This document shows positions 1,021 to 15,080 of a DNA stretch of 19,093 bases, in pieces. A program made the position numbers and the translations under genes. This DNA is from a virus (lineage: Duplodnaviria > Heunggongvirae > Uroviricota > Caudoviricetes): IMG/VR virus record IMGVR_UViG_2563366800_000003. One strand, given 5' to 3'. Below the pieces are notes generated by a model, which did no database searches, had not been told where the DNA came from, and was given only the letters and a program-made list of their open reading frames with translations. Each line of letters starts with the position of its first letter. Position 1 is the first letter of the stretch.

Positions 1021-1066
1021 ATTCGTAATGCGAAGGTCGTAGGTTCGACTCCTATTATCGGCACCA
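1021..1066 (+). other. 46-nt 3' portion of tRNA-Thr(CGU) (thrW-type) without its 5' half; attachment-site core of the downstream integrative element
   Basis: ATTCGTAATGCGAAGGTCGTAGGTTCGACTCCTATTATCGGCACCA matches my recollection of the E. coli thrW 3' end (anticodon CGT, T-arm GGTTCGACTCC, acceptor TATCGGC + CCA). The preceding 30 nt do not form the matching 5' acceptor/D-arm (GCCGATA…), so this is not an intact tRNA gene. Confidence 0.7.
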
Positions 1067-1083
1067 TTCAAACATCTCCCCAA

Positions 1084-1165
1084 GTCTACTAAAGTCTTTC
1101 AAAACCCCTTATAATCCGCGTATTAAAGCCCCGTTCGTCTTTTGACGTCTACTAAAGTCCCTCAA
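1084..1165 (+). repeat. Two direct copies of GTCTACTAAAGTC(Y)(Y)TCAAAA (1084-1102 and 1147-1165) between the att core and int
   Basis: Seen directly in the sequence, 63 bp apart; the position fits accessory-factor or arm-type binding sites of an attP-derived region (inference). Confidence 0.45.
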
Positions 1166-1178
1166 AATCTACGGTCAG

Positions 1179-1231
1179 ATGGGGGTACTTATGGGGGTAT
1201 TTGCTGTTCGGTTTAGTGGAGGTACCCCCAA
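1179..1231. promoter_or_regulatory. Three TGGGGGTA motifs (two direct at 1180-1187 and 1192-1199, one inverted at 1223-1230) immediately upstream of int; candidate arm-type integrase binding sites
   Basis: Seen directly; a near-identical ATGGGGGTACTT(T)TGGGGGTAT block recurs at 17693-17718 near the proposed right end. A GGAGG Shine-Dalgarno (1218-1222) for int lies within this region. Confidence 0.45.
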
Positions 1232-2446
1232 GTGAAACTCAATGCCCGTCAAATAGACACAGCCAAGCCAAAAGAGAAGGCTTACAAGCTGGCCGATGGT
1301 GGCGGTTTGTATCTCTTGGTAAAACCTAATGGAGGTAAATACTGGCGACTTAAATATCGTGTAGCTGGTAAAGAGAAGCTATTGGCACTAGGTGTGTATC
1401 CTGAGGTTACTCTAGCCGATGCTCGGGCAAAACGTGAAGATGCGAAAAGAGGTATCGCTGGTGGTATCGATCCGATGGAAGCGAAACGAGAGGAAAAGAT
1501 TGCCCGGGAAACGCAGTTAAACAACACCTTCAAAGATATTGCCCTTGAGTGGCACAGCAGCAAATTAAAAAAATGGTCTGCTGGTTATGCTTCAGACATC
1601 CTCGAAGCCTTCAACAAAGATGTGTTCCCTTACATTGGCAAAAAACCAATCGCCGAAATCAAACCACTTGAACTTCTGAATGTGCTGCGGCGCATCGAGG
1701 GGCGCGGTGCTACAGAAAAAGCCAAAAAAGTGAGGCAGCGGTGCGGGGAAGTTTTCCGCTATGCAATAGTCACTGGTCGCGCAGAGTATAACCCTGCACC
1801 AGACCTTACTAGCGCGATGCAAGGCCATGAATCTAATCATTACCCTTTCCTTACAGCCAAAGAATTACCTGATTTTTTCAAGGCATTGTCCAGTTACTCA
1901 GGAAGCGCATTGGTTGTTATGGCGGCTCGTCTACTGATTATCACCGGCTTGCGGACTGGCGAACTACGTGGCGCATTATGGGATGAAATTGATTTCAACA
2001 AGGCTATCTGGGAGATACCCGCTTCACGTATGAAAATGCGGCGGCCTCATATTGTGCCATTGTCTGAGCAGGCTCTTTCGCTTATTGGGAAGATTAGAGA
2101 AATAACAGGCAATTACCCTCTTATGTTTCCCGGGCGCAATGATCCAAGGAAAACAATGAGCGAGGCCAGCATAAACCAAGTGTTTAAGCGCATTGGCTAC
2201 GCTGGACGTGTAACTGGTCATGGGTTCCGGCACACTATGAGTACGATTTTGCATGAGCAGGGCTATAACACCGCGTGGATAGAAACGCAGCTCGCTCACG
2301 TTGATAAGAACTCAATTCGTGGCACATACAACCATGCGCAATATCTGGATGGAAGGCGGGAGATGCTTCAATGGTATGCCGACTATATGGATTCTCTCGA
2401 GCATGGCGGAAATGTGGTGCATATGGTGTTTGAAAAACACGCATGA
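1232..2446 (+). CDS. int: P4-family tyrosine integrase (site-specific recombinase, phage integrase family)
   Basis: 404-aa ORF with GTG start 9 nt after GGAGG; N-terminal arm-binding-type region (LNARQIDTAKPKEKAYKLADGGGLYLLVKPNGGKYWRLKYR), catalytic-domain signatures HGFRHT and C-terminal RGTYNHAQYLDGRREMLQWYADYM typical of CP4-57 IntA/P4 Int relatives; sits directly next to a tRNA 3' fragment. Confidence 0.9.
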   Translation: MKLNARQIDTAKPKEKAYKLADGGGLYLLVKPNGGKYWRLKYRVAGKEKLLALGVYPEVTLADARAKREDAKRGIAGGIDPMEAKREEKIARETQLNNTFKDIALEWHSSKLKKWSAGYASDILEAFNKDVFPYIGKKPIAEIKPLELLNVLRRIEGRGATEKAKKVRQRCGEVFRYAIVTGRAEYNPAPDLTSAMQGHESNHYPFLTAKELPDFFKALSSYSGSALVVMAARLLIITGLRTGELRGALWDEIDFNKAIWEIPASRMKMRRPHIVPLSEQALSLIGKIREITGNYPLMFPGRNDPRKTMSEASINQVFKRIGYAGRVTGHGFRHTMSTILHEQGYNTAWIETQLAHVDKNSIRGTYNHAQYLDGRREMLQWYADYMDSLEHGGNVVHMVFEKHA

Positions 2447-2716
2447 AACAACTGGACAAGTATACAGAGGTTTACTAAAGTATAGGGGAGTAGATTGATA
2501 AAAACTCACAGAGGATTGCTATTTAACAGTTAGCCCTGGAGAAGGGCAATCGCTCTTTTATAAACGAAGGTGTATTGAGCCTTCTACGTCGCTGACAAAG
2601 CGGAATGTTCTTTAAAACTACTGGATGTCACGCCTAATAGCGTGATCCTGCCGAAATGCAGGGTAGCTCTACCCTTGTGGAGCAAACAAACCAAAACAAT
2701 CTGACTATCTTTTATA

Positions 2717-2751
2717 AAAGACCGCAATATGTTTTTCATATTGTGGTCTTT
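2717..2751. promoter_or_regulatory. Imperfect 15-bp inverted repeat (AAAGACCGCAATATG-TTTTT-CATATTGTGGTCTTT) in the AT-rich int-alpA intergenic region; candidate operator or terminator
   Basis: Seen directly; one mismatch in the stem; lies ~90 bp upstream of the alpA start. Confidence 0.3.
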
Positions 2752-2837
2752 GGCGTATTCGGCATTTGACGCAAATAAAACTCTCGCCATTCGTTGCAGG
2801 AGGGGGTTATTGCGTCATTAGTACAGGATATTAATAA

Positions 2838-3041
2838 ATGGCTAATTACAATTCATTAATTCGTCTCTCTGAAGTTCAAAGGCGAACTGGTTATAGCAAA
2901 GCATGGATTTATCGTCTTATTAGTCAGGGGAGGTTCCCTAAACAGGTAAAAATTGGAAGTCGGGCAATTGCTTTTGTTGAGTCTGAAATAGATGAATGGA
3001 TTGAGAAGTGTATATTAGAATCTAGAGACGAGATGGCCTGA
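2838..3041 (+). CDS. alpA: AlpA-family phage transcriptional regulator/excisionase-like DNA-binding protein
   Basis: 67-aa ORF RLSEVQRRTGYSKAWIYRLISQGRFPKQVKIGSRAIAFVESEIDEWI matches the AlpA helix-turn-helix pattern; position directly after int is typical of P4-like/PICI elements. Confidence 0.85.
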   Translation: MANYNSLIRLSEVQRRTGYSKAWIYRLISQGRFPKQVKIGSRAIAFVESEIDEWIEKCILESRDEMA

Positions 3042-3472
3042 TGGAAAAGAAAAACCGCCCATTACAGGCGGCTAATTCAGATATTCGTGTATCTGATGTT
3101 ACGCCCCTTACAAAATCCCTTCAAGCACCAAAGCGCACACCGAAAAAGCATCGTGCCAGAGTCTATATGCTGCGTACTGGTATAGAGGGATGGACAGAAA
3201 ATGACATTCTTCGCTACTGCCGTCTGTCTTCTGGTCGTAACTATGCAACAGAGTTAGAACGCCAGCTTGGAATCACTCTGGAGCGTATCGACGAAAAGAA
3301 TCCTGATGGTATCGGAACACACCTTCGCTACCGTTTCTCCTGCCGTGGTGATGTTCTGAAAGTGATCACTCATATTAACCATCTTGCGAACATAAATGAT
3401 CACAACGGACTTTCTCAGCAGGAAATTGCCGACATTCTGAAACTCTACCCGGACGCGTTTAACGCCGCCTAA
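3041..3472 (+). CDS. Hypothetical protein (143 aa), translationally coupled to alpA (TGATG overlap)
   Basis: ORF with start overlapping the alpA stop; no family recognised. Confidence 0.55.
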   Translation: MEKKNRPLQAANSDIRVSDVTPLTKSLQAPKRTPKKHRARVYMLRTGIEGWTENDILRYCRLSSGRNYATELERQLGITLERIDEKNPDGIGTHLRYRFSCRGDVLKVITHINHLANINDHNGLSQQEIADILKLYPDAFNAA

Positions 3473-3484
3473 CGGAGACTGAAA

Positions 3485-4318
3485 ATGAACATCGAAAAAA
3501 GCAGATTAATTTCTGAGGCTGCCCCTCATCTGAACGCCTCTCTGGGCACAATTAACGGTAATGAATTTGCCGCAATTGTCCCGGTTATTCCTGGTCATAT
3601 CGGTGGGCGTGAAACCAATATTGTTAGCGCAAAAGCGTTACACAAAGCGTTGGGCGTGGGAAAAGACTTCTCTACATGGATCACTGATCGCATCTCTGAA
3701 TATGACTTCACCATTGGGCACGATTACTCAGTCCATAAAACAATTTCCCCAAATTTGGGGAAAAGCCCGAATGGCGCGGCTTACAGCAAGATTAAGCAGT
3801 CTGGCAGACCCGGCAAAGACTATCTGTTAAGTGTCGGAATGGCGAAAGAACTGGCAATGATCGAACGCAATGATCAGGGTCGCGCTATCCGTCGTTATTT
3901 CATCCAGTGCGAGGAAGAATTACAGCGTAGCGTGCCTGAAATCGCCGCCCGCTATCGTCGCCAGCTAAAAGCCCGTATTAGTGCCGCAAACAACTTTAAG
4001 CCAATGTGCGATGCGCTGAATATGGCCCGTGCCGAGCAGGGGAAAACGACGCAGCAACACCACTACACAAACGAGAGCAATATGATTTCTCGTATCGTTC
4101 TTGGTGGGCTAACTGCTAAGCAGTGGGCGCGGATAAATGGCTATTCTGGCGAACCTCGCGACCATATGAACGCAGAACAGCTTGAGCACCTCTCATATCT
4201 CGAAAGCACCAATATCACGTTAATTGATATGGGCATGGAATATGAGCAGCGCAAAGGAGAACTCACCCGCTTGTCGCAACGCTGGCTCGCCAAGCGTCTG
4301 GAGGCGGTCCATGTTTAA
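3485..4318 (+). CDS. Phage antirepressor-like protein with AntA/AntB-type N-terminal domain
   Basis: 277-aa ORF; VSAKALHKALGVGKDFSTWITDRISEYDFTIGHDY fits the AntA/AntB antirepressor domain pattern (V.A..LH..L.....F..W...RI..Y.F....DY). Confidence 0.65.
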   Translation: MNIEKSRLISEAAPHLNASLGTINGNEFAAIVPVIPGHIGGRETNIVSAKALHKALGVGKDFSTWITDRISEYDFTIGHDYSVHKTISPNLGKSPNGAAYSKIKQSGRPGKDYLLSVGMAKELAMIERNDQGRAIRRYFIQCEEELQRSVPEIAARYRRQLKARISAANNFKPMCDALNMARAEQGKTTQQHHYTNESNMISRIVLGGLTAKQWARINGYSGEPRDHMNAEQLEHLSYLESTNITLIDMGMEYEQRKGELTRLSQRWLAKRLEAVHV

Positions 4319-4493
4319 GCCGACAGGAACACCACAACCTCAAAAACGCTACAAAGATGCCCACGGAGCACTCGTTACTGTCGAAAGCGTGTCTCACAAC
4401 CGAGTGACGTTTTATCGCGACGGGTATCAATCGCCATGCGTACAACCGCTGGCACGTTTCATGAAGGAGTTCGCGGAGGTTAACAAATGCTAA
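4311..4493 (+). CDS. Small hypothetical protein (60 aa), ATG overlapping the stop of the preceding gene
   Basis: ATGTTTAA overlap at 4311-4318; [60 protein letters not shown]; the track shows a longer frame from 4224 but coupling favours 4311. Confidence 0.4.
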   Translation: MFKPTGTPQPQKRYKDAHGALVTVESVSHNRVTFYRDGYQSPCVQPLARFMKEFAEVNKC

Positions 4494-5554
4494 CCGCCCA
4501 GAAGAAGATATTTTCACTGGCTGGTATGTCGCCAAAATCCAGCAATATGACAGCAAAGTCAGACATTAATACAGCAGATACAAGCAAAGTTTATCATTTT
4601 CTGGTGGTAGGAGCGGATGCCTTAACTATGTCAGAAATTACGGTCGATGGTGTTAGCGTTGAGAAGGTCAGCGGCTATGCCAGAGAATTTCTGGTCGTAG
4701 ATGGCTTTCTCTGCTCGTGTAGTGACTCCACAAAAACCTTCGTCCACGCGCGTGACGTTAACGAAATGAGCGCGATGTACTGTGCTTCTGGTTCTTCCAA
4801 TAGTGAGTTTTCGGAGTCCATAAAAAAGAGCTTGCCGTTATGCGGCAACACGGTTTATGGTTATAAGGCACCTCATAAAACGGGTGCCGGGATTGGCGTC
4901 CTGAAAATTCTGAAGGCGACATATGACGCGCCGAGCGTCTTTTTTTATGTCGTAGGTCTGACTCACCCATTTTTTGGGCGTTGGTGTATAATCCAGCGCC
5001 TTTGTCAATCAATGGTGGCTCAGGCGGGGGCTTCTTCGGAAGCGCCGGTATCCTTCAGAGCCGGTTACGCCAACCCTGTCTGGGCTACCACCAGCGAAAT
5101 TGGCGTTTCCGGTGGTAGCGTAACCTGCTATCTGAAGGAGGCTGCCACATGCTGGCTACTACCCCTACCCAAAAAACGCAATTTATCTGGATTATCGCCG
5201 CAGTTCGCCGCGATTGCCCGACAATTACCGCCAAAATTCATCATATTGCTGCCGAGTCTGAACGCGATGCTCGCCGTTCTCTGGTGCGCGATCACATCTG
5301 CTTTTTTGCTGGTCGTATCCGCATGGAGGTGGCACATGATTAAAACCTACGATGTGCATATGGATCCCCTCGAACGCACAAGCCAGATCATCACACTGAC
5401 AGAAGTGATTAACGACATTCTGGTGAGCAACTCTCCCTCACGAGACGAAAAACTGAAGGCGTTACTCGCGATATTGGACCTCGCCGTTCGTGACGTTCAT
5501 TTCCTGCTGGAAGGTGGACAAATGCCATGCAAAACGGGGGCAACCAATGAATAA
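4487..5554 (+). CDS. Uninterrupted 355-codon ORF, probably composite: plausible N-terminal ~145-aa hypothetical protein and a separate C-terminal small gene (5336-5554, 72 aa, GGAGG RBS) joined by low-quality run-on
   Basis: Good RBS (GGAGG, 4475-4479) before the ATG at 4487; the middle of the frame contains a terminator-like hairpin plus T-run (~4925-4946), a TATAAT-like hexamer (~4985-4990), and a W/C-rich improbable translation; a second gene with a strong RBS occupies another frame at 5149-5343. Confidence 0.35.
5149..5343 (+). CDS. Small hypothetical protein (64 aa)
   Basis: AAGGAGG 8 nt upstream of the ATG at 5149; its stop overlaps the next ATG (ATGATTAA at 5336-5343), indicating translational coupling. 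Confidence 0.45.
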   Translation: MLATTPTQKTQFIWIIAAVRRDCPTITAKIHHIAAESERDARRSLVRDHICFFAGRIRMEVAHD

Positions 5555-5741
5555 CTCAATTAATACCCCTCGCCTTACGTCCGCACTTCAATTAATCGAG
5601 CAAGCAGCGGCTGTCCCGGTTGCTGTCAGTCTTTCGGCTGAAGAAATGGACGCTGCTGATGTCGTGGATGCGATTAAAGCGTGCTCATCTTTGGTTAACG
5701 ATGCCCGTGCCGAGCTGGTAATTCTTGGGGGTGAAAAATGA
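5547..5741 (+). CDS. Small hypothetical protein (64 aa; track ORF 5490-5741 with internal start at 5547)
   Basis: ATGAATAA overlap with the upstream frame stop at 5552-5554 and a G-rich RBS; [64 protein letters not shown]. Confidence 0.5.
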   Translation: MNNSINTPRLTSALQLIEQAAAVPVAVSLSAEEMDAADVVDAIKACSSLVNDARAELVILGGEK

Positions 5742-6001
5742 ATATCAACTTAATTTATCGTCATCCGTGTGAGCTGGAAATTGAATCATTGCTGGGGCGC
5801 GAAGAGCCATATCCAGACACATTCACTCCCGCAGATTGCGCGACTGAACGGCTTACCAGAGCGCGCACAGGTCTGGTTCATGTGATGAATGAGATTGTTC
5901 CCTCGGTGGGAGGGGAACAGGCGACAGTAATCAATAGCTGGCTACAAAAAGTTACCTCCCTGATAGATATCGGTTTAATCGATGTGGAGAGTGCGAAATG
6001 A
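5738..6001 (+). CDS. Hypothetical protein (87 aa), ATGA-coupled
   Basis: Start overlaps the upstream stop (ATGA at 5738-5741); no family recognised. Confidence 0.55.
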   Translation: MNINLIYRHPCELEIESLLGREEPYPDTFTPADCATERLTRARTGLVHVMNEIVPSVGGEQATVINSWLQKVTSLIDIGLIDVESAK

Positions 6002-6219
6002 CCAACATCCAGCTCATTGAAGCGCAATGTCGCATCGAACAGGTTCAGACTGTTTTAGGGTTCTGGCTTGAAGGGGCCAGCCCCAGCAACAGAGACAAGT
6101 TAATGATTGGCGCGGTTATGTCACTGCTCAATGGCGTACCAGAAGCTATTCAGGAAGCGGACGAATTGTTGGGCAAATATGAGTTACAGAATCATTCAGG
6201 CGAGGCGAAACATGAATAA
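5998..6219 (+). CDS. Hypothetical protein (73 aa), ATGA-coupled
   Basis: Start overlaps the upstream stop (ATGA at 5998-6001); no family recognised. Confidence 0.55.
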   Translation: MTNIQLIEAQCRIEQVQTVLGFWLEGASPSNRDKLMIGAVMSLLNGVPEAIQEADELLGKYELQNHSGEAKHE

Positions 6220-6814
6220 TTTCTTAACTTTCCATGCAGAAGCAACGCCTGACGGCGTAAACATCATGTACCGCAGCAACGATGGCATGACAGAACGCGT
6301 TGATACCGTCTCATATATTGATGCCGTAAATCGTCTGGATGCCGGGGATTATGACGATAAACCAGATGAAGGCATGTTTATACATCTCGCTATTGCCAGT
6401 GGCGGCAACCAGGGATATTTCGATTACACATCACAGCATCACGTGATTATGTGGCGCTGGCTGATAGCAACAGCATTCATCAATGAAATGAGAAAGGAAA
6501 ACGGCACCGTCAGCATTATTGATGACAGTGGCAATCATTCCGTGGTTTCTGTTTATTCCAATGGCATCGTCGCCATGCCGCTGTATCCAGTAGCAGAGCG
6601 CCTCGCTATGGCAAACAACATTGAGGGCGCAATGATCGAGAAATATGGTGTTGATGTCGGAACAAATAATGCCATCATTTTTTACAGCAACATGTTCGAT
6701 GTCGAACAGGGAACACTCACTTCGTTTGGGCGAGAAGTGCTTGCCGATCTTCACAACAGCTTTATTGCCGAACTAAACGAAAACGGCATCCCAGAAGCAC
6801 CAGTGACGCACTAA
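6212..6814 (+). CDS. Hypothetical protein (200 aa; track ORF 6107-6814 with probable start at 6212)
   Basis: ATG at 6212 is preceded by GAGG and overlaps the upstream stop (ATGAATAA); begins MNNFLTFHAEATPDGV…; no family recognised. Confidence 0.6.
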   Translation: MNNFLTFHAEATPDGVNIMYRSNDGMTERVDTVSYIDAVNRLDAGDYDDKPDEGMFIHLAIASGGNQGYFDYTSQHHVIMWRWLIATAFINEMRKENGTVSIIDDSGNHSVVSVYSNGIVAMPLYPVAERLAMANNIEGAMIEKYGVDVGTNNAIIFYSNMFDVEQGTLTSFGREVLADLHNSFIAELNENGIPEAPVTH

Positions 6815-6826
6815 ACGGGGGCCAGA

Positions 6827-9583
6827 ATGCGAAACATTGATCTTATCCGTCAGGTTATCAGTGCGTCTGAAAACAACTGGCCTCATGTGCTGGGCTGCCT
6901 GAACATAAATGTCCCTGACTCTCCGCGCCGTCATGCTCCCTGCCCTGCATGTGGGGGCAAAGATCGATTCCGGTTCGATGACAACGGGCGCGGTAGCTTC
7001 ATCTGTAATCAGTGCGGCGCTGGTGATGGGCTGGATTTAATTAAACGCGTAAATAACTGTGACACAACAGAGGCGGCGCTGCTTGCCGCTGATGTTCTGG
7101 GTATTGATTACCGGACAACGGAAACACCAGAAGCCACCAGCCAGAAACGGGAACAACTGGAAACCGAGCGCCAGCGACGCGAACAGGAGCGCCTGAAAAG
7201 GGCAGAGAAGGACGAACAACAAAGACGGGATACGTTTTCCCGTCAGTTTGATGACATGCGCAGAAAGGCTGTAAACGGCAAATCTGATTATCTGGTTGCG
7301 AAAGGGGTAGGTGATTTTACATTCCCAGTGTTGCCCGATGGATCTCTGTTGCTGGCGCTGGTGGATAAATCCGGCGCAGTCACAGCAGCACAGACTATTA
7401 CCTCACATGGTGAAAAAAGACTCCTGACAGGTTCAGCAAAGCGAGGGGCATATCACGCCATAAACGCACCAGAAACAACACAGAGCATCTTAATCGCAGA
7501 AGGGCTGGCAACGGCATTATCTGCCCATTTAATTCGTCCAGAATCGCTGACAGTGGCGGCGATTGATGCCGGGAACCTGTTATATGTCGCCCAGGTACTG
7601 CGGGATAAATTTCCTTCAGCACAAATCATCATTGCTGCGGATAACGACCACAGCGAAGGAAGACAAAACACGGGGAGAATAGCAGCAGAAAAAGCAGCTT
7701 TATCTGTTTCTGGATGGGTGGCATTACCCCCGACAGATCACAAAGCAGACTGGAATGATTACCACCAAAAACACGGCATTAAATGCGCCACAGAAGCGTT
7801 CAATAAGTCAATGTACCAACCACAGGGTAATGGCGTGAAACAGCAGCCACAGACCATTGAGGGAAGCGATTTTAAGGTTATGGATACCGACCCACTGAAA
7901 CCAAGAATAGAAAGCCGCGAGGATGGTATTTATTGGGTATCTCCGAGAGCTGACAGCCAGAGTGGAGAAATCATCAATAACGAAAGCTGGTTATGTTCTC
8001 CGTTAAGCGTTATCGGTACTGGCAGAGACGATAAAGACCAGTATCTCATTCTTCGCTGGCTGTCGTTTGGTTCTGAAACGCCGACAACCGCTGCCATTCC
8101 ACTGGCTGATATTGGTGAACGTGAAGGATGGCGCACACTTAAAGCTGGTGGGGTAAATGTCACGACCAAAAGCAGCCTCAGAGCAATACTGGCAGACTGG
8201 CTACAACGCAGTGGCTCTCGTGAATTGTGGCGTGTTGCTCATGCCACTGGCTGGCAATGCGGAGCGTACATCATGCCTGATGGGGAAATCATCGGAACAC
8301 CTGAAAATCCTGTGCTGTTCAGCGGGAGAAGCTCAGCCGCAGCCGGATATACCGTCTCAGGGAGCGCGAAAAGCTGGCGTGATAACGTGGCGCGTCTGGC
8401 CTTTGGTAACTATTCAATGATGACCGGGATCGGCGCAGCACTGGCAGCGCCATTGATTGGGCTGGTGGGCGCTGACGGGTTCGGCATTCATTTCTATGAG
8501 CAGTCGAGCGCAGGTAAGACCACCACGGCAAACGTGGCGAGCAGCTTATACGGCAACCCTGATTTATTGCGGCTGACGTGGTACGGAACCGCGCTGGGGC
8601 TGGCAAATGAAGCCGCCGCCCACAATGACGGACTAATACCGCTTGATGAAGTTGGTCAGGGCGCTGATCCTGTCAGTGTTTCACAGTCTGCCTATGCGTT
8701 ATTTAACGGTGTAGGGAAACTGCAAGGCGCTAAAGATGGTGGAAACCGGGATCTAAAACGCTGGCGTACAGTGGCAATCAGCACTGGAGAAATGGATTTA
8801 GAAACATTTATCGCTACTTCCGGGCGAAAAACCAAAGCCGGGCAACTGGTGCGACTGCTGAATATTCCGTTGAGTAAAGCAGTACGCTTTCACGATTACC
8901 AGAACGGAAAACAGCACGCAGACGCACTGAAAGACGCTTACCAGCATCACCACGGCGCAGCCGGGCGTGAGTGGATTAAATGGCTGGCAGACCACCAGCA
9001 ACAGGCAATTAAAACTGTTCGTGACTGCGAAAGCAGATGGAGAAGTCTGATCCCATCCGATTATGGTGAGCAGGTTCACCGTGTAGCCGCGCGATTTGCC
9101 ATTCTGGAGGCCGCATTGCTGTTAGGCGAGGTTGTAACAGGCTGGGATGCTCAGACATGCCGTGATGCGATACAGCACAGCTATAACGCATGGTTGCGCG
9201 AGTTCGGCACAGGTAACAAAGAACATCAGCAGATTATTGAACAAACGGAGGCATTTCTTAATGCCTATGGGCTTAGCCGTTTTGCACCATTTCCATACAG
9301 CCCGGCAGATTTGCCCATCAAAGATTTGGCCGGATACCGTCAGCGTGGAGAACATGACGAAAGCCCAATGATTTTCTACACATTCCCGGCCACATTTGAA
9401 AAGGAGATCGCATGTGGTTTCAACGCAAAACAGTTTGCTGAAGTGTTGAAAAAAGCCGGGATGCTAACCCCACCAAACAGCGGTCGTGGATACCAAAGAA
9501 AATCACCACGTATTCAGGGACGACAAATAAACGTTTATGTACTCAATTACCAGCCAGGAGATTATAACTCATCTGAAGAATGA
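6827..9583 (+). CDS. Primase-helicase replication protein (zinc-binding N-terminus, Toprim primase domain, C-terminal P-loop NTPase/DUF927-like domain), P4 alpha/PICI Pri-Rep type
   Basis: 918-aa ORF; CxxC…CxxC zinc ribbon (CPACGGKDRF…FICNQCGAG); Toprim signature (ILIAEGLATA … IIIAADNDHSEGRQ); P-loop-like SAGKTT with downstream hydrophobic-DE Walker B (GLIPLDEVGQ); iteron array immediately 3'. Confidence 0.9.
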   Translation: MRNIDLIRQVISASENNWPHVLGCLNINVPDSPRRHAPCPACGGKDRFRFDDNGRGSFICNQCGAGDGLDLIKRVNNCDTTEAALLAADVLGIDYRTTETPEATSQKREQLETERQRREQERLKRAEKDEQQRRDTFSRQFDDMRRKAVNGKSDYLVAKGVGDFTFPVLPDGSLLLALVDKSGAVTAAQTITSHGEKRLLTGSAKRGAYHAINAPETTQSILIAEGLATALSAHLIRPESLTVAAIDAGNLLYVAQVLRDKFPSAQIIIAADNDHSEGRQNTGRIAAEKAALSVSGWVALPPTDHKADWNDYHQKHGIKCATEAFNKSMYQPQGNGVKQQPQTIEGSDFKVMDTDPLKPRIESREDGIYWVSPRADSQSGEIINNESWLCSPLSVIGTGRDDKDQYLILRWLSFGSETPTTAAIPLADIGEREGWRTLKAGGVNVTTKSSLRAILADWLQRSGSRELWRVAHATGWQCGAYIMPDGEIIGTPENPVLFSGRSSAAAGYTVSGSAKSWRDNVARLAFGNYSMMTGIGAALAAPLIGLVGADGFGIHFYEQSSAGKTTTANVASSLYGNPDLLRLTWYGTALGLANEAAAHNDGLIPLDEVGQGADPVSVSQSAYALFNGVGKLQGAKDGGNRDLKRWRTVAISTGEMDLETFIATSGRKTKAGQLVRLLNIPLSKAVRFHDYQNGKQHADALKDAYQHHHGAAGREWIKWLADHQQQAIKTVRDCESRWRSLIPSDYGEQVHRVAARFAILEAALLLGEVVTGWDAQTCRDAIQHSYNAWLREFGTGNKEHQQIIEQTEAFLNAYGLSRFAPFPYSPADLPIKDLAGYRQRGEHDESPMIFYTFPATFEKEIACGFNAKQFAEVLKKAGMLTPPNSGRGYQRKSPRIQGRQINVYVLNYQPGDYNSSEE

Positions 9584-9607
9584 GCTTCTTCATGTGCGTA
9601 GAAAAGG

Positions 9608-9722
9608 TGTTGGTTCAGTTGGTTCAGTTGGTTCAATTTGTAAAGAGTATTGTTTTATAAGGATTTTATTCTTTTTATTGAACCAACACTGAACCAACAA
9701 CACGGTATTTTGAACCAACACA
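9608..9722. repeat. Iteron-type origin module: three tandem (G)TTGGTTCA repeats (9608-9637), a 41-bp AT-rich spacer, three inverted TGAACCAAC repeats (9679-9719)
   Basis: Seen directly; sits immediately downstream of the primase-helicase gene, the usual place for a satellite/plasmid ori; an inverted copy occurs at 15638-15762. Confidence 0.6.
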
Positions 9723-10040
9723 ATGTGACTGAATTGATGCGCACAACACCTGGCTGGCATCAGAGAGTGTTTTACGAGACTTTCGTAAAATCCTGTGTAC
9801 AAGGGCGTGACGTTTTTGAAAGTAAGCACTACGAAATTTTCGTAGTTCAAAAAACAGCCTTTGAGAAGTTGTTATGCCTGTTCAGCAAACCATCCGCATA
9901 GCTGATCGCGAATCAAATTACCAATGGAGCCAGAAGCAAGGGCAGAACTGGAAAGCGCCTGCCGTGAAGAGTAATGCGACACCATAAATATAGTTTTTAG
10001 AGTCCATAAAAAACCTGTCAAAACCTGACATACAGAACGA

Positions 10041-10072
10041 TGCCACCAGCTACTGAGTGGTGGCATTTTTTT
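10041..10072 (+). terminator. Rho-independent terminator (8-bp stem TGCCACCA/TGGTGGCA, 9-nt loop, 7 T's)
   Basis: Perfect stem and T-run seen directly at 10041-10072. Confidence 0.6.
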
Positions 10073-10128
10073 GTGCTATTTGTTTCATATTTTGCAATTA
10101 CGATGATGAATATTGCGATTTGTGAAAC

Positions 10129-10152
10129 TATAATAACTGTTGTTTTATACAG
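10129..10152 (+). promoter_or_regulatory. Candidate -10 hexamer TATAAT (10129-10134) followed by a LexA-box-like CTGT-N8-ACAG (10137-10152) upstream of the cargo operon
   Basis: aaCTGTtgttttatACAGtt fits the CTGT-N8-ACAG core of SOS boxes with a mostly AT spacer; flanking bases deviate from the TACTGT…ACAGTA consensus; no convincing -35. Confidence 0.35.
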
Positions 10153-10167
10153 TTCTAAGGGGGCGTT

Positions 10168-10341
10168 ATGGCTATTTCAGTAAAGCCAGTATTGATAAGT
10201 GAGAAGCAAATGGAAGCGATAAAGAAAATTCAGGAGGAGCAGCGTAAAAAATCAGAGGTAGGAGTTGCGCCAACGATCCACGAAATTGCTCGGGGATTAA
10301 TGGATAAGGCGCTGGCTTACACTTTAACTGGACGTGGGTAA
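10168..10341 (+). CDS. Small hypothetical protein (57 aa), first gene of the cargo operon; possibly a small DNA-binding or adaptor protein
   Basis: Strong RBS (AAGGGGGCG) before the ATG at 10168; [57 protein letters not shown]; below the 60-aa cut-off of the ORF track; its stop lies 4 nt before the next ATG. Confidence 0.5.
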
Positions 10342-11782: not shown

Positions 11783-13887
11783 TGGCTAAAGCATGGAAAG
11801 ATGTTATCGCTTCTCCACAGTATCAGGCGTTAGCACCAGAACAAAAAGCGCAGGCTCAGGAGCAATACTTCAATGAAGTCGTGGCCCCGCAAGCCGGAGA
11901 AAGTGTAGAGCAGGCTAAGCAGGCTTTTTATGCTGCCTATCCACTGCCATCAACGAATGAAATAGACCGATCCCAATCAGCAACTCAAAATATTCAACAT
12001 ACATCATCTGATAATTCTCTTGCGTCAGGGTATGCAAAGTTAGCTACTCAGCAAAGAGAGGGGCTTGAGCGTTCAGCAGAACAGGGAGCCAGTCTTGGGG
12101 CTGCGATGCGCGATGCTATAACAGGCGAAAGCCGAATGACTCCAGAGATGGAGAGACTGCAAAATGTCGCCTCTGCCCCAGAATTGAACTCACTAAGCAT
12201 GGATGCCTTAAAGGCTGGATGGTCTCAACTTTTCGGCTCTGACGCGTCTCAGGAAAAGATTCTTCAGGGAATGGGGGCGACATTAAGGCAGGATGAGAAG
12301 GGGAATACTATCGTTTCTCTGCCATCAGGTGATTATGCCCTAAACAAGCCGGGTTTATCACCGCAAGACCTGACTTCGTTTCTTGCTAATGCGTTGGCGT
12401 TTACACCAGCGGGCAGGGCTGGAACGGTGCTTGGTGCCATAGGAAAATCAGCAGCTACAGATTTAGCACTACAGGGAGCCACCAGCCTTGCTGGTGGAGA
12501 AGATATTGATCCGTTACAAACGGTAATTTCTGCTGGCATTGGTGGTATTGGTAAGGGGCTGGAAAATACAGCGAGTGCGGTTTCGAGGGCTGTTCGTGGT
12601 GATATGTCGCCTGAAGCAAAGGCTGCTGTCGACTTTGCATCGGAAAGAAATCTGCCGTTAATGACCAGTGACATGCTGAAAGATAAAACCTTTATGCAGA
12701 GTCAGGCTCAGACATTAGGCGAAAGACTTCCTTTTTTTGGAACCGGTAAGAACCGACTGAATCAACAACAAGCACGAGAAAATTTAGTCAGAACATTTAG
12801 CGATGGTCTGGGGGGAATTTCAGATAAACAGCTTTATGAGTCTGCGACTAAAGGGCAGCAAAAATTCATTGAGGCAGCAGGAAAGCGATATAACCGCATA
12901 ATTGACGCTATGGGGGATACCCCTGTCGATCTCTCAAACACGGTAAAAGCTATCGACAATCAGATTGCCGTGTTAAGCCGACCGGGCAAATCTCAGGATA
13001 GAGCCGCGGTAAAAGTCTTGCAGCAATTTAAAGACGATATCACCAGCGGACCCAATGACCTGCGTCTGGCGAGAGAAAACAGAACTGACCTTCGAAAGCG
13101 GTTCATGAATTCAAACGAGACTGTTGATAAAGACACGCTCCAGAAAGCCAGCGATATTGTCTACAAGGCATATACAGCGGATATGAAAAAAGCAGTATCC
13201 CAAAAACTAGGCTCAGAAGAAGCTACCAATATGTCTAGGGTTGATCGCTCATGGGCTAGATTCAATGACATGATGGGAAGAACGCGCGTTCAAAAGGCAA
13301 TAGCCAGCGGCAAGGCCACGCCTGAGGATGTAACAAAACTCGTTTTTAGCCAAAACCCATCAGAACGTTCTCAGCTTTACAGGCTTCTGGATGACAATGG
13401 TAGGCAAAACGCACGAGCCGCCATAGTTCAGAATGCTGTAGATAAGGCGACTGATCCGTCTGGAAATATCAGTGTTGAGAAGTTTATTAATGCGTTACAC
13501 CGGAACAGGAAGCAATCAGCAACTTTCTTTAAAGGCGTATATGGAAAGGAACTGGACGGCGTTATTAAATACCTCAATGATACAAGACACGCGGCAAAAG
13601 CGAACGTTCAAAACTTAAATGGTCAGCAGCTTTATGGATTGTTAGTTGGTGGTGGCATCATAAACGCAGCAGTATTAGCGGGGATGCTAAAAACGGCTGC
13701 GTTTGTTGTTCCTGCTGCTGGTGTCGTAGGCGGAGCAGCGAAGGCATACGAAAGCCCTGTTATACGAAATGCCTTGTTACGTCTGGCAAATACGCCAAAA
13801 GGTAGCACAGCATATGACAGAGCGATCAGTACGGTCACACAATCGCTCACCAGAGTCGCACAGGCATCACAAAAAGAATCTCAATAA
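11782..13887 (+). CDS. Hypothetical protein (701 aa), helical/low-complexity with a C-terminal Gly/Ala-rich hydrophobic hairpin (residues ~617-653); candidate membrane-inserting protein
   Basis: Translationally coupled to the upstream gene, GGGGTGA RBS; hydrophobic LYGLLVGGGIINAAVLAGMLKTAAFVVPAAGVVGGAA near the C-terminus; no nucleotide-binding or nuclease motif seen. Confidence 0.8.
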   Translation: MAKAWKDVIASPQYQALAPEQKAQAQEQYFNEVVAPQAGESVEQAKQAFYAAYPLPSTNEIDRSQSATQNIQHTSSDNSLASGYAKLATQQREGLERSAEQGASLGAAMRDAITGESRMTPEMERLQNVASAPELNSLSMDALKAGWSQLFGSDASQEKILQGMGATLRQDEKGNTIVSLPSGDYALNKPGLSPQDLTSFLANALAFTPAGRAGTVLGAIGKSAATDLALQGATSLAGGEDIDPLQTVISAGIGGIGKGLENTASAVSRAVRGDMSPEAKAAVDFASERNLPLMTSDMLKDKTFMQSQAQTLGERLPFFGTGKNRLNQQQARENLVRTFSDGLGGISDKQLYESATKGQQKFIEAAGKRYNRIIDAMGDTPVDLSNTVKAIDNQIAVLSRPGKSQDRAAVKVLQQFKDDITSGPNDLRLARENRTDLRKRFMNSNETVDKDTLQKASDIVYKAYTADMKKAVSQKLGSEEATNMSRVDRSWARFNDMMGRTRVQKAIASGKATPEDVTKLVFSQNPSERSQLYRLLDDNGRQNARAAIVQNAVDKATDPSGNISVEKFINALHRNRKQSATFFKGVYGKELDGVIKYLNDTRHAAKANVQNLNGQQLYGLLVGGGIINAAVLAGMLKTAAFVVPAAGVVGGAAKAYESPVIRNALLRLANTPKGSTAYDRAISTVTQSLTRVAQASQKESQ

Positions 13888-13891
13888 CTGG

Positions 13892-13916
13892 TTAGCCATG
13901 GATGGCTAATTTTTGT
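13892..13916 (+). terminator. Rho-independent terminator (TTAGCCA-TGGA-TGGCTAA followed by TTTTTGTTCTTT) ending the cargo operon; overlaps the 3' end of the convergent membrane-protein gene
   Basis: 7-bp stem, 4-nt loop, T-rich tail directly after the 701-aa stop codon. Confidence 0.5.
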
Positions 13917-14325
13917 TCTTTGCTCTCATCCATAGGTAAAGAAGGGAAAGAACAAGACAAAAAACAGAGAATAGATAACCTACCTCATATGGTGCGCCAA
14001 AAAAATTAGCTATTGATACGGGCAAAAAAGCTGAAGCGATCAAAATTGAAAGGCAAAAAATAAGCCCAGTAATATAGTTTATTAAATTCTTAAATGAGAA
14101 ACGTTTTGCTTGATTTACGGTCTTAACGAACGATCGCTTAACGACGGATAAAAGCAAATAGATGGCGACAGTTGCTAATACCCCTTTCCACCAGTCTGGA
14201 TATAGTTTTGCGACAATCAGACCAAGTAAAACCATGATGACAGCCTGAGCATTCACACCAACCCTCCCTTTAGCTTTGTTTAGAATGGCAATCATCATAT
14301 ATCCAAGACATGGCATTTGGTACAT
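13906..14325 (-). CDS. Small polytopic inner-membrane protein (predicted 4 TM helices; 139 aa from the first ATG, ~117 aa if the GTG at 14259 with GGGAGGG RBS is used), convergent to the cargo operon
   Basis: Hydrophobic segments VIMVLLGLIVAKLY, VLATVAIYLLLSVV, ITGLIFCLSILIASAFLPV, YLFSVFCLVLSLLYLWM; strongly AT-rich codon usage unlike its neighbours. Confidence 0.65.
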   Translation of the reverse strand: MYQMPCLGYMMIAILNKAKGRVGVNAQAVIMVLLGLIVAKLYPDWWKGVLATVAIYLLLSVVKRSFVKTVNQAKRFSFKNLINYITGLIFCLSILIASAFLPVSIANFFGAPYEVGYLFSVFCLVLSLLYLWMRAKNKN

Positions 14326-14443
14326 AGCTTGGGTCGGGATTTCAAATCCGCTCCCAGTTGATGGGGTCGTTACAGTACGCGCATATCCGCTTTATGTGAA
14401 ACAGGAAGATTTTTCTGATATCACTGCCACAGCAAAACACCAA

Positions 14444-14467
14444 TTTCGAGACAAGTACGCGCGCGAG
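14444..14467. repeat. Copy a of the TTTCG(A/G)GACAAGTACG(Y)GCGCG repeat family
   Basis: Seen directly; related copies at 14731-14758 and 16120-16150, shorter CAGTACGCGC/CAGTACGCAC variants at 14374-14384 and 14505-14518. Confidence 0.5.
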
Positions 14468-14730
14468 GGGTATCAGTTGCAAAATTTTTTGCAACTGCGT
14501 CCGACCAGTACGCACACGATGGCGGGGGATACCATGAAACTGTTCTCTACATAAGTCAGAGTGGTGGTGATGTGTTGATTATCGGCGTATATGCGCACAG
14601 GACGCGCTATGACAATGTTTTATGCGGGTACACCAATCACATGTATCTGGTGTGATAAATCGCGTTACATGACATCTCATGTTGTGCTGGTGGTTATCAC
14701 GACGTTCTGAATCTGGCTTTTGTCTGATAT

Positions 14731-14758
14731 TTTGCGACAAGTACGTGCGCGTAGCATC
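14731..14758. repeat. Copy b of the GACAAGTACG(Y)GCGCG(CG)TAGCA repeat family
   Basis: TTTGCGACAAGTACGTGCGCGTAGCATC; shares the upstream TCTGATAT motif with copy a. Confidence 0.5.
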
Positions 14759-14779
14759 GACAGCATACACATTGGATAT

Positions 14780-15001
14780 TCATTTTGTGACCAATGCGAT
14801 AAGTAGCGGGATAAGCATTGATAAAATCAACAGGCCGATGATCCACTTTTGATTTTCACTGGCCTTATCTCTATTTTCATCAATCTTATCAATAATTCGA
14901 CGCTCCAAGCCGTGCATATCACCGCGAATGGCAATCATCTCATTGCGAACATCCGAGAAGTGGTTGGCTTGATGTTCAATGTGTGGCGTTCTGCCTTTCA
15001 T
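14780..15001 (-). CDS. Small protein (73 aa) with charged helical N-terminus and a single C-terminal transmembrane anchor; XhlA-like architecture
   Basis: …DKIDENRDKASENQKWIIGLLILSMLIPLLIALVTK; GAGG 9 nt upstream of the ATG; family assignment is by architecture only. Confidence 0.5.
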   Translation of the reverse strand: MKGRTPHIEHQANHFSDVRNEMIAIRGDMHGLERRIIDKIDENRDKASENQKWIIGLLILSMLIPLLIALVTK

Positions 15002-15080
15002 TCCTGATCCTCACCTATCGTCACCACCTGCTGGTGTATAAAGGTATTGGCCCAAGCAGCTTTCCAATGGGCACTCATGT

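Follow-up and report, generated by a model that had tools for sequence, protein, structure and literature searches.

P22-like phages keep pac, a short, asymmetric and orientation-specific sequence, inside the gene for the small terminase protein TerS (terS): in P22 this is gene 3, within which a 22-bp pac is annotated, and in Sf6 it is gene 1. Leavitt et al. are reported to have placed the Sf6 pac, in 2013, in the stretch of gene 1 coding for the DNA-binding domain of TerS. Helper-type cos sites are carried by satellites such as the EcCICFT073-type phage-inducible chromosomal islands (PICIs) and SaPIbov5, and the cos site of P4 is identical to that of P2. Helper-type packaging sites on satellites are taken up in the discussion of the sole experimental paper on the satellite family considered here, whose subject, the island EcCIMP1, has no terminase or capsid-remodelling genes yet is transduced specifically by the P22-like phage Kapi1, through a packaging mechanism stated to be unknown (PMC11773190). 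Here we analyse the repeat-dense stretch at positions 14326-14779 of an EcCIMP1-like island (IMG/VR record IMGVR_UViG_2563366800_000003; the whole 19093-nucleotide sequence is referred to as the window), which lies between a membrane-protein gene and an XhlA-like gene. The repeats appear to be same-direction copies of a ~25-50-base piece of a helper-type small-terminase gene, and we tentatively propose that these units are TerS recognition or pac-type sites, which would let a satellite lacking terS use the terminase of its helper. Satellites carrying the packaging recognition sequence of a helper are already known, and the candidate described here may, on an equally tentative footing, be a pac-type version taken from terS.

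Repeat units and the helper terS gene

The repeat unit has the consensus GGAGTTTCGAGACCAGTACGCGCGCGGG. A search of the window with the 16-mer, allowing at most three mismatches, returned four copies, all on the plus strand, against 0.21 expected, and none of 200 shuffled sequences reached four. Two of these, copies a (GACAAGTACGCGCGCG, 14450-14465) and b (GACAAGTACGTGCGCG, 14736-14751), had been picked out in the initial annotation together with the upstream motif they share (TCTGATAT, at 14414-14421 before a and 14723-14730 before b) and short CAGTACGC variants, which are found at 14373 and 14506; all elements listed there were recovered. The 16-mer recurs exactly a third time, as copy c, at 16126-16141, beyond the range covered then. 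The fourth, unit a2 (GACCAGTACGCACACG, 14503-14518, plus strand), is a degenerate copy with three mismatches that has ~30 nt in common with unit a.

A position weight matrix (PWM) built from 15 distinct non-coding PICI units only, applied to the 39.4-kb Kapi1 genome, found one outstanding site (25.6 bits at 18871, plus strand), which lies inside terS; the next-best match in Kapi1 scored 9.1 bits and 200 shuffles peaked at 17.5. An identical site is present in Sf6 gene 1 (nt 162-189), to which the island units are near-identical, and in P22, which has a different type of TerS, the matrix found nothing above 10.6 bits. Read in one frame, the 16-mer encodes D-K-Y-A-R-A, Sf6-type TerS proteins contain FRDKYAKA, and unit a read in the terS frame gives AKHQFRDKYARE against AKHEDFRDKYAKA in TerS. 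Unit c aligns over 44 nt with Kapi1 terS (18849-18892; score 18 against 13.0 +/- 1.1) and retains the FRWLA codons (TCCTCTGGCTGGC against TTCCGCTGGCTGGC in terS), while unit a retains the AKH codons (GCAAAACAC against GCAAAGCAT) with a one-codon gap. When the core was left out, the resemblance of the flanks to terS gave p=0.0003 upstream of a, 0.007 upstream of c, 0.008 for unit e and 0.02 for unit d; the upstream flank of a2 is not terS-like. The similarity to terS reaches beyond the core, differently in each copy, and the element matches the 3' end of the region coding for the DNA-binding domain in an Sf6-type terS (gene 1 nt 162-189).

Four related islands (L418, L419, L427 and L435; numbers with L denote loci compared with the window) carry an Sf6-type terS of their own with the site inside the gene. 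Their TerS proteins match Pfam Sf6_terminase (2.7e-44) and are 64-66% identical to Kapi1 TerS, and the non-coding units of L418 carry the same GACCAG variant as the L418 terS. The TerS of these islands (encoded at L418:15353-16096, likewise in the other three), whose primases show 68-69% identity, has an additional helix-turn-helix (HTH) extension of ~100 residues at its N terminus, and no large terminase gene is present.

The units could also be functionless relics, that is, decayed terS fragments of an ancestral island that were duplicated by chance and are drifting. An intact terS in some relatives is what this explanation would expect, units a and d show in-frame gaps relative to terS, and the diversity of the module that holds the repeats (95-97% identity) is like that of neighbouring genes. 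It would have to account for the survival of just the same 25-50 nt, three to five times per island and in one orientation, with the rest of terS untraceable, and for the exact 16- or 23-mer being kept at non-syntenic positions in islands that are 73% identical overall, and we regard it as quite improbable. A terS gene decayed in situ was rejected, the L418 terS not being syntenic with the module and no other part of terS being detectable in the window.

The module, its variation and its neighbours

Homology of the window to variant islands (65 related loci) begins at 14331 or 14342 (or at 14251/14253 or 14193) and stops at 14760, delimiting a conserved module (14331-14760) between the membrane-protein slot and a slot for XhlA-like, Abi or HTH genes. 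The module is 95.8% identical in EcCIMP1, where DNA homology does not extend to the genes on its left. Its two open reading frames (14276-14554, plus strand; 14579-14770, minus strand), already judged unconvincing in the initial annotation, gave no significant Pfam or PHROG match and are both disrupted by frame-changing indels and by deletions of 53 and 286 nt among 44 haplotypes, and for these reasons we take the stretch to be non-coding, a discrete conserved module between variable gene slots.

Unit a is the most complete terS-like copy and, with its upstream spacer (GGAAGATTTTTCTGATATCAC ... ATTTCGAGACAAGTACGCGCGCG), spans 14404-14467 on the plus strand (exact 16-mer at 14450; PWM 39.2 bits at 14440); it has 23 additional bases between TCTGAT and ATTTCG, and its position 14453 is polymorphic, being A in 26 haplotypes and C in 18 (GACAAG or GACCAG). 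Unit b (CTGGCTTTTGTCTGATATTTTGCGACAAGTACGTGCGCGTAGCA; 14713-14756, plus strand; exact 16-mer at 14736; PWM 24.6 bits) and unit c (TCCTCTGGCTGGCGGTTTCTGGTATTTCGGGACAAGTACGCGCGCGCGTAGCA; 16096-16148, plus strand; exact 16-mer at 16126; PWM 40.4 bits) are alike over ~45 nt, from CTGGC to TAGCA. Unit c is preceded by a hairpin (16081-16103), lies 49 nt past the PerC stop codon and is missing jointly with the 3' half of PerC in variants that switch at 15879. The weakest member, the short variant CAGTACGCGCA (14373-14383, plus strand), is below the PWM threshold and possibly a chance match. Between units a and a2 stands a palindrome with an A/T-tract centre, which is perfect (11+11, CAGTTGCAAAA-TT-TTTTGCAACTG; 24 bp at 14474-14497). 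Its arms are retained in 42 of the 44 haplotypes and lost in those with an a x a2 deletion, and its centre is variable (AAAATTTTTT, AAAAAATTTT, AAAAAGTTTT, or 1 nt shorter). The inverted pair GTGATAA (14652-14658) and TTATCAC (14694-14700), on the plus strand at 14652-14700, encloses ACATGA-CATC-TCATGT and is followed by a T-rich run into unit b; its folding is insignificant and it was not flagged by the terminator scan. Two segments, 14557-14613 (57 nt) and 14382-14448 (67 nt), are invariant across the 44 haplotypes while neighbouring positions vary.

Searches of 13880-16700 against Rfam, both at the gathering score and at E<=5, returned nothing but a spurious hairpin over iteron-like repeats. 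Folding z-scores were insignificant for the whole stretch (-1.67 and -0.16) and for each unit, no structure is common to the units, and no complementarity of the motif to the isrK and C4 RNAs of the island was seen by eye; a structured RNA was ruled out on the absent Rfam family, the insignificant folding and the lack of a common structure. It is conceivable that the units act instead as a small RNA or antisense regulator, for example through minus-strand transcripts complementary to the helper terS mRNA, since an mRNA transcribed from the minus strand, from the XhlA-like gene through to the membrane gene, would include three segments complementary to 12-18 nt of terS mRNA. We consider this highly improbable: in addition to the Rfam and folding results, the region has indel polymorphism, and the units of the leader arrays described below, being in the sense orientation of their operon, cannot be antisense to terS. 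A further non-coding segment, at 16150-16374 downstream of unit c, contains two copies of AATAGCRGYRACCTGAAT and ends in CGGGACTGCCCG followed by CCCCATCGTTTTTTT, which is terminator-like; it could be a small RNA, with no Rfam match there.

The initial annotation had also raised the possibility that the stretch is the scar of a site-specific recombination or cassette-exchange site. The repeats are indeed recombination substrates: deletions between copies were seen for a x b (L247 and L256) and for a x a2 (53 nt, in two haplotypes), and copy c shows a slip of one CG dinucleotide. In its broader form this explanation holds that repeats with a (CG)4-5 tract serve as homology patches for swapping cassettes and terS domains. 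Homology to alternative cassettes stops at 14760, 4 nt past unit b (in L003, L244, L245, L246, L005, L039 and many metagenome loci), the motif in L277 marks a mosaic junction with a homologue of window 4747-4830, and a Chi site (GCTGGTGG, 14686-14693, plus strand) lies ~45 nt upstream of unit b and ~70 nt before the homology break. Kapi1 terS (L297:18704-19132) and 80 IMG/VR homologues (L299-L378) fall into two or three allele groups that differ strongly in codons 1-59 and are nearly identical from codon 60 on, two groups of DNA-binding-domain alleles converging exactly at GAC AAG TAC GCG; this pattern indicates that the DNA-binding domain of terS is swapped as one module whose junction lies at the motif.

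Against a dedicated exchange site, just two alternative right flanks follow copy b, so that the breakpoint at 14760 is essentially one ancestral event and the seemingly many independent breaks there reduce to two flank classes. The other cassette ends (15126, 15638-15659, 15879, 14251/14253 and 14193) have no repeat. Neither a dedicated cassette recombinase nor an inverted-repeat site architecture is evident, and the tandem leader arrays of compact islands are not at cassette borders. Strict orientation and the exact core kept at 73% overall identity suggest selection beyond homology. Integron attC sites are comparable in placing short conserved sequences beside exchangeable cassettes, with deletions between copies, but the island units are direct rather than imperfect inverted repeats, no IntI-type integrase lies beside the array, and the cassettes are not flanked by a unit on both sides; an attC-like or other site-specific cassette site was ruled out by the direct units, the unit-free far cassette ends and the two flank classes. 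Recombination between the repeats is ordinary direct-repeat behaviour and not a cassette-exchange system, and a role as recombination substrate or cassette junction seems to us an improbable explanation of the units.

To the left of the module, the membrane-protein gene (13906-14325, minus strand) is an open reading frame in the position that sieA has in P22. It has weak matches to membrane families only and occupies an exchangeable slot, being swapped between 13907 and 14253 in L002, L016 and L056. To the right of unit b, a second exchangeable slot holds a small XhlA/holin-like gene in the window (14780-15001, minus strand; phrog_6324 at 5e-11 and a weak holin PHROG) and Abi, HTH or other genes in other islands. 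The accessory genes in the slots on both sides of PerC (L003, L244-L247 and L298, corresponding to window 14760-17700) differ by strain and include those for an Abi family protein, a Panacea-domain protein, a Doc-type toxin, small HTH regulators and pRiA4b ORF-3, which looks like a defence/toxin-antitoxin hotspot on a satellite. In many islands the 3' half of PerC differs beyond 15876-15879 (window 15796-16148 against L243-L246), and unit c goes with it.

Distribution across the PICI family

The window is an EcCIMP1-like PICI, a satellite rather than a prophage remnant. Pfam searches identified an integrase, AlpA, an AntA antirepressor, a TOPRIM/DUF927 primase, a P22 injectosome protein and PerC, and Rfam identified isrK and C4 RNAs within 4868-5095, in the order integrase, AlpA, antirepressor, isrK/C4 RNAs, primase, P22-type ejection proteins, accessory hotspot and PerC. 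The ejection ("DNA transfer") genes that mark EcCIMP1-like islands are among the ordered set, and DNA identity to EcCIMP1 of E. coli MP1 is high (95-99% over 1021-10316, 14331-14760 and 15638-17794); units a, b and c all lie in DNA common to both islands. EcCIMP1-like islands are mobilised by P22-like helpers with an Sf6-type TerS.

The motif is not a common genome-wide repeat. Of 5426 complete E. coli genomes, 539 contain the 57-nt copy-b region, at a median of one place per genome and always in this island, which rules out a dispersed repeat of the REP/ERIC type, and a scan of 185,579 species genomes with the 16-mer gave matches in other phyla at chance level, in high-GC taxa. Neither 14330-14780 nor a 35-nt composite unit matched any GenBank phage. 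Among 80 relatives of the island gathered through the primase (52-100% identity), with a unit defined by a PWM score of >=18 bits, there were 54 unit matches in several unrelated contexts, all 54 on the primase strand and none on the opposite one. This is the fixed orientation expected of pac sites, and the four copies of the window, all on the plus strand, share it. Compact relatives, which lack the ejection genes and the hotspot, carry one to five direct units immediately upstream of the isrK promoter; one of them (L028), 73% identical overall, keeps the exact 23-mer at a different place. The spacer and unit a of the window (14404-14465) are homologous to the units of these leader arrays in L418 and L395 (score 39 against 20.2 +/- 2.3). 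True phages with isrK have no unit arrays, so the arrays are satellite-specific and not part of general isrK control. Repeats a, a2, b and c belong to a cis element of ~22-28 bp, or up to ~60 bp with the spacer, that is family-wide and locked in orientation. On a 25-kb metagenome contig (L090/L342, IMGVR_UViG_3300045988_004969), an Sf6-type terS and portal, coat and tail genes like those of Kapi1 are followed by a gp16 gene with 97% identity to that of the window, and then by the membrane gene and the a-b module; the contig is a genuine P22-like phage with the module or else a chimeric assembly.

The position of the leader arrays brings in a second explanation, already foreshadowed by the suggestion in the initial annotation that the stretch is a regulatory hub. 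The units may form an operator or activator array bound by a transcription factor of the satellite or the helper, which would control the isrK promoter in compact islands and the promoters of the accessory module in the window, the module being a diverged duplicate of the isrK control region; the match in terS would then be incidental, or a site for satellite interference with helper late genes. The direct units adjoining the isrK promoter and the homology of 14404-14465 to the leader array agree with this, as does the last half-unit, GAGTTTTCGGAGTCCATAAAAAAGGGCTTGC, which overlaps the -35 region and is retained even in the window (4806-4836). By eye only, the degenerate ACCATGAAACTG (ACCATAAAACTG in other haplotypes) after a2 is like TCCATAAAAAAG after the leader array. 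The layout also resembles the immI (sieA-mnt) region of P22, which has promoters and operators in the same place: gene 16 and a leftward membrane gene (sieA) are followed by ~320-455 bp of non-coding DNA (455 bp here), a leftward small open reading frame with a ribbon-helix-helix (RHH) repressor gene, operators or repeats, and one or more rightward regulators. It differs in that there is no DNA similarity and no PWM match in P22, the rightward gene of the island is PerC, and the intergenic TGTTGGTTCA repeats look like iterons.

A scan of 14326-14779 for sigma-70 promoters and intrinsic terminators gave no site on either strand, with counts at shuffle level, which speaks against such an array. 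Neither AlpA nor the RHH protein qualifies as the unit-binding protein: AlpA autoregulates the alpA promoter (PMC11773190), and that promoter region has no unit, while compact islands without the RHH gene retain the units. An operator array is further countered by the isrK-carrying true phages that have no arrays, and it leaves unexplained both the single strong site in the helper terS and the site inside the terS genes of satellites. Control of transcription stays a live rival, though in our view an unlikely one, and the evidence points on to a cis element common to the island and the helper terS.

The isrK region and the iteron-like repeats show further features. The isrK RNA (4868-4945; 67.8 bits) and the C4 antisense RNA (5008-5095; 79.9 bits) lie inside an annotated "ash family protein" reading frame (4487-5554), which may be spurious, and the C4 loop UCCUUCAG is complementary to CUGAAGGA (5125-5132), the ribosome-binding site of the next gene; the arrangement suggests a P1/P4-type RNA immunity module on a satellite. 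The 10-mer TGTTGGTTCA forms two clusters (9608-9720 and 15638-15760; 13 matches against 1.45 expected), in each of which three direct and three inverted copies are arranged about an A/T-rich centre; the first directly follows the primase gene and the second lies between the RHH gene and PerC. By analogy, the pair resembles the ori and crr of satellite P4, which are bound by the P4 primase-helicase, and is a candidate replication origin.

A candidate pac-type packaging signal

The reading of the units as TerS recognition sites fits their strict orientation, the several copies per island, the free position, the satellite specificity and the relatives that carry terS. If it is right, an island without terS would present its replicated DNA to the terminase of the helper by way of the units, with a, a2, b and c together forming a multipartite pac-type signal whose uniform direction would set the direction of headful packaging; binding of TerS to the units and the start of packaging at them are what we infer from the sequence matches. 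The A/T-tract palindrome between a and a2 might act as a bend, by analogy only with the I1 element in lambda cosB (R3-I1-R2). Both lambda cosB (R3-I1-R2-R1) and SPP1 pacL/pacR have repeated TerS-binding boxes with a bend or A-tract element between them, the counterpart here being a and a2 on either side of the palindrome with unit b 233 bp further on, but there is no sequence relationship, the analogy is one of architecture only, and the island has no defined cut site.

Compared with the pac of P22-like phages, the island units are likewise short, asymmetric and orientation-specific, but they are non-coding, present in several copies and placed on a satellite without terS. Satellites with a helper-type cos are similar in having no full terminase, in carrying the recognition sequence of the helper and in placing the site downstream of a replication/packaging module. 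They differ in that their sites and helpers are of the cos type, whereas the island candidate would serve a headful P22-like helper as a signal of the pac type, made of several degenerate units from within the terS coding sequence, and in that no redirecting protein like Rpp or Ppi was identified in the island.

Several observations weigh against a packaging role. Perfect identity to Kapi1 terS extends only over GACAAGTACGCG, the conserved CGCGCG extension of the island units is not in terS, and 46 of the 80 relatives have no match at or above the threshold. The variant leader motif CCGATACGCTTGCGTC of other islands occurs in no terS gene, so a test of co-variation with it neither supports nor refutes a TerS site. 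In compact islands the arrays adjoin the isrK promoter, an operator-like placing, and the contig L090/L342, if it is a real phage, would have pac-like units at a distance of 14 kb from the terS it encodes. The motif lies right at the 3' edge of the region encoding the DNA-binding domain, where terS alleles switch (codon 59/60), and because of this location it could be a conserved recombination linker rather than pac. The efficiency of EcCIMP1 transduction by Kapi1 is very low (PMC11773190).

Extended to the whole EcCIMP1-like PICI family, the proposal calls for a little more reserve: these islands might all be packaged through arrays of a ~25-bp terS-derived element, some keeping terS and others only its non-coding copies, so that the latter would need a helper whose TerS specificity matches. 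Were this so, the packaging signal of EcCIMP1 would be identified, the Sf6-type pac element pinpointed and the helper range explained. Should the units prove to be operators or recombination linkers, they would be an ordinary feature of a mosaic accessory region. Because the units match a single site in the helper genome, located within terS, the gene in which P22-like phages have pac, the question of EcCIMP1 packaging becomes directly testable. Confirmation would make them the first packaging signal of a Gram-negative PICI to mimic that of a helper of the pac type (headful), would independently locate the recognition sequence of Sf6-type TerS, which has been hard to demonstrate in vitro, and would show that satellites can lose terS yet keep its internal site.

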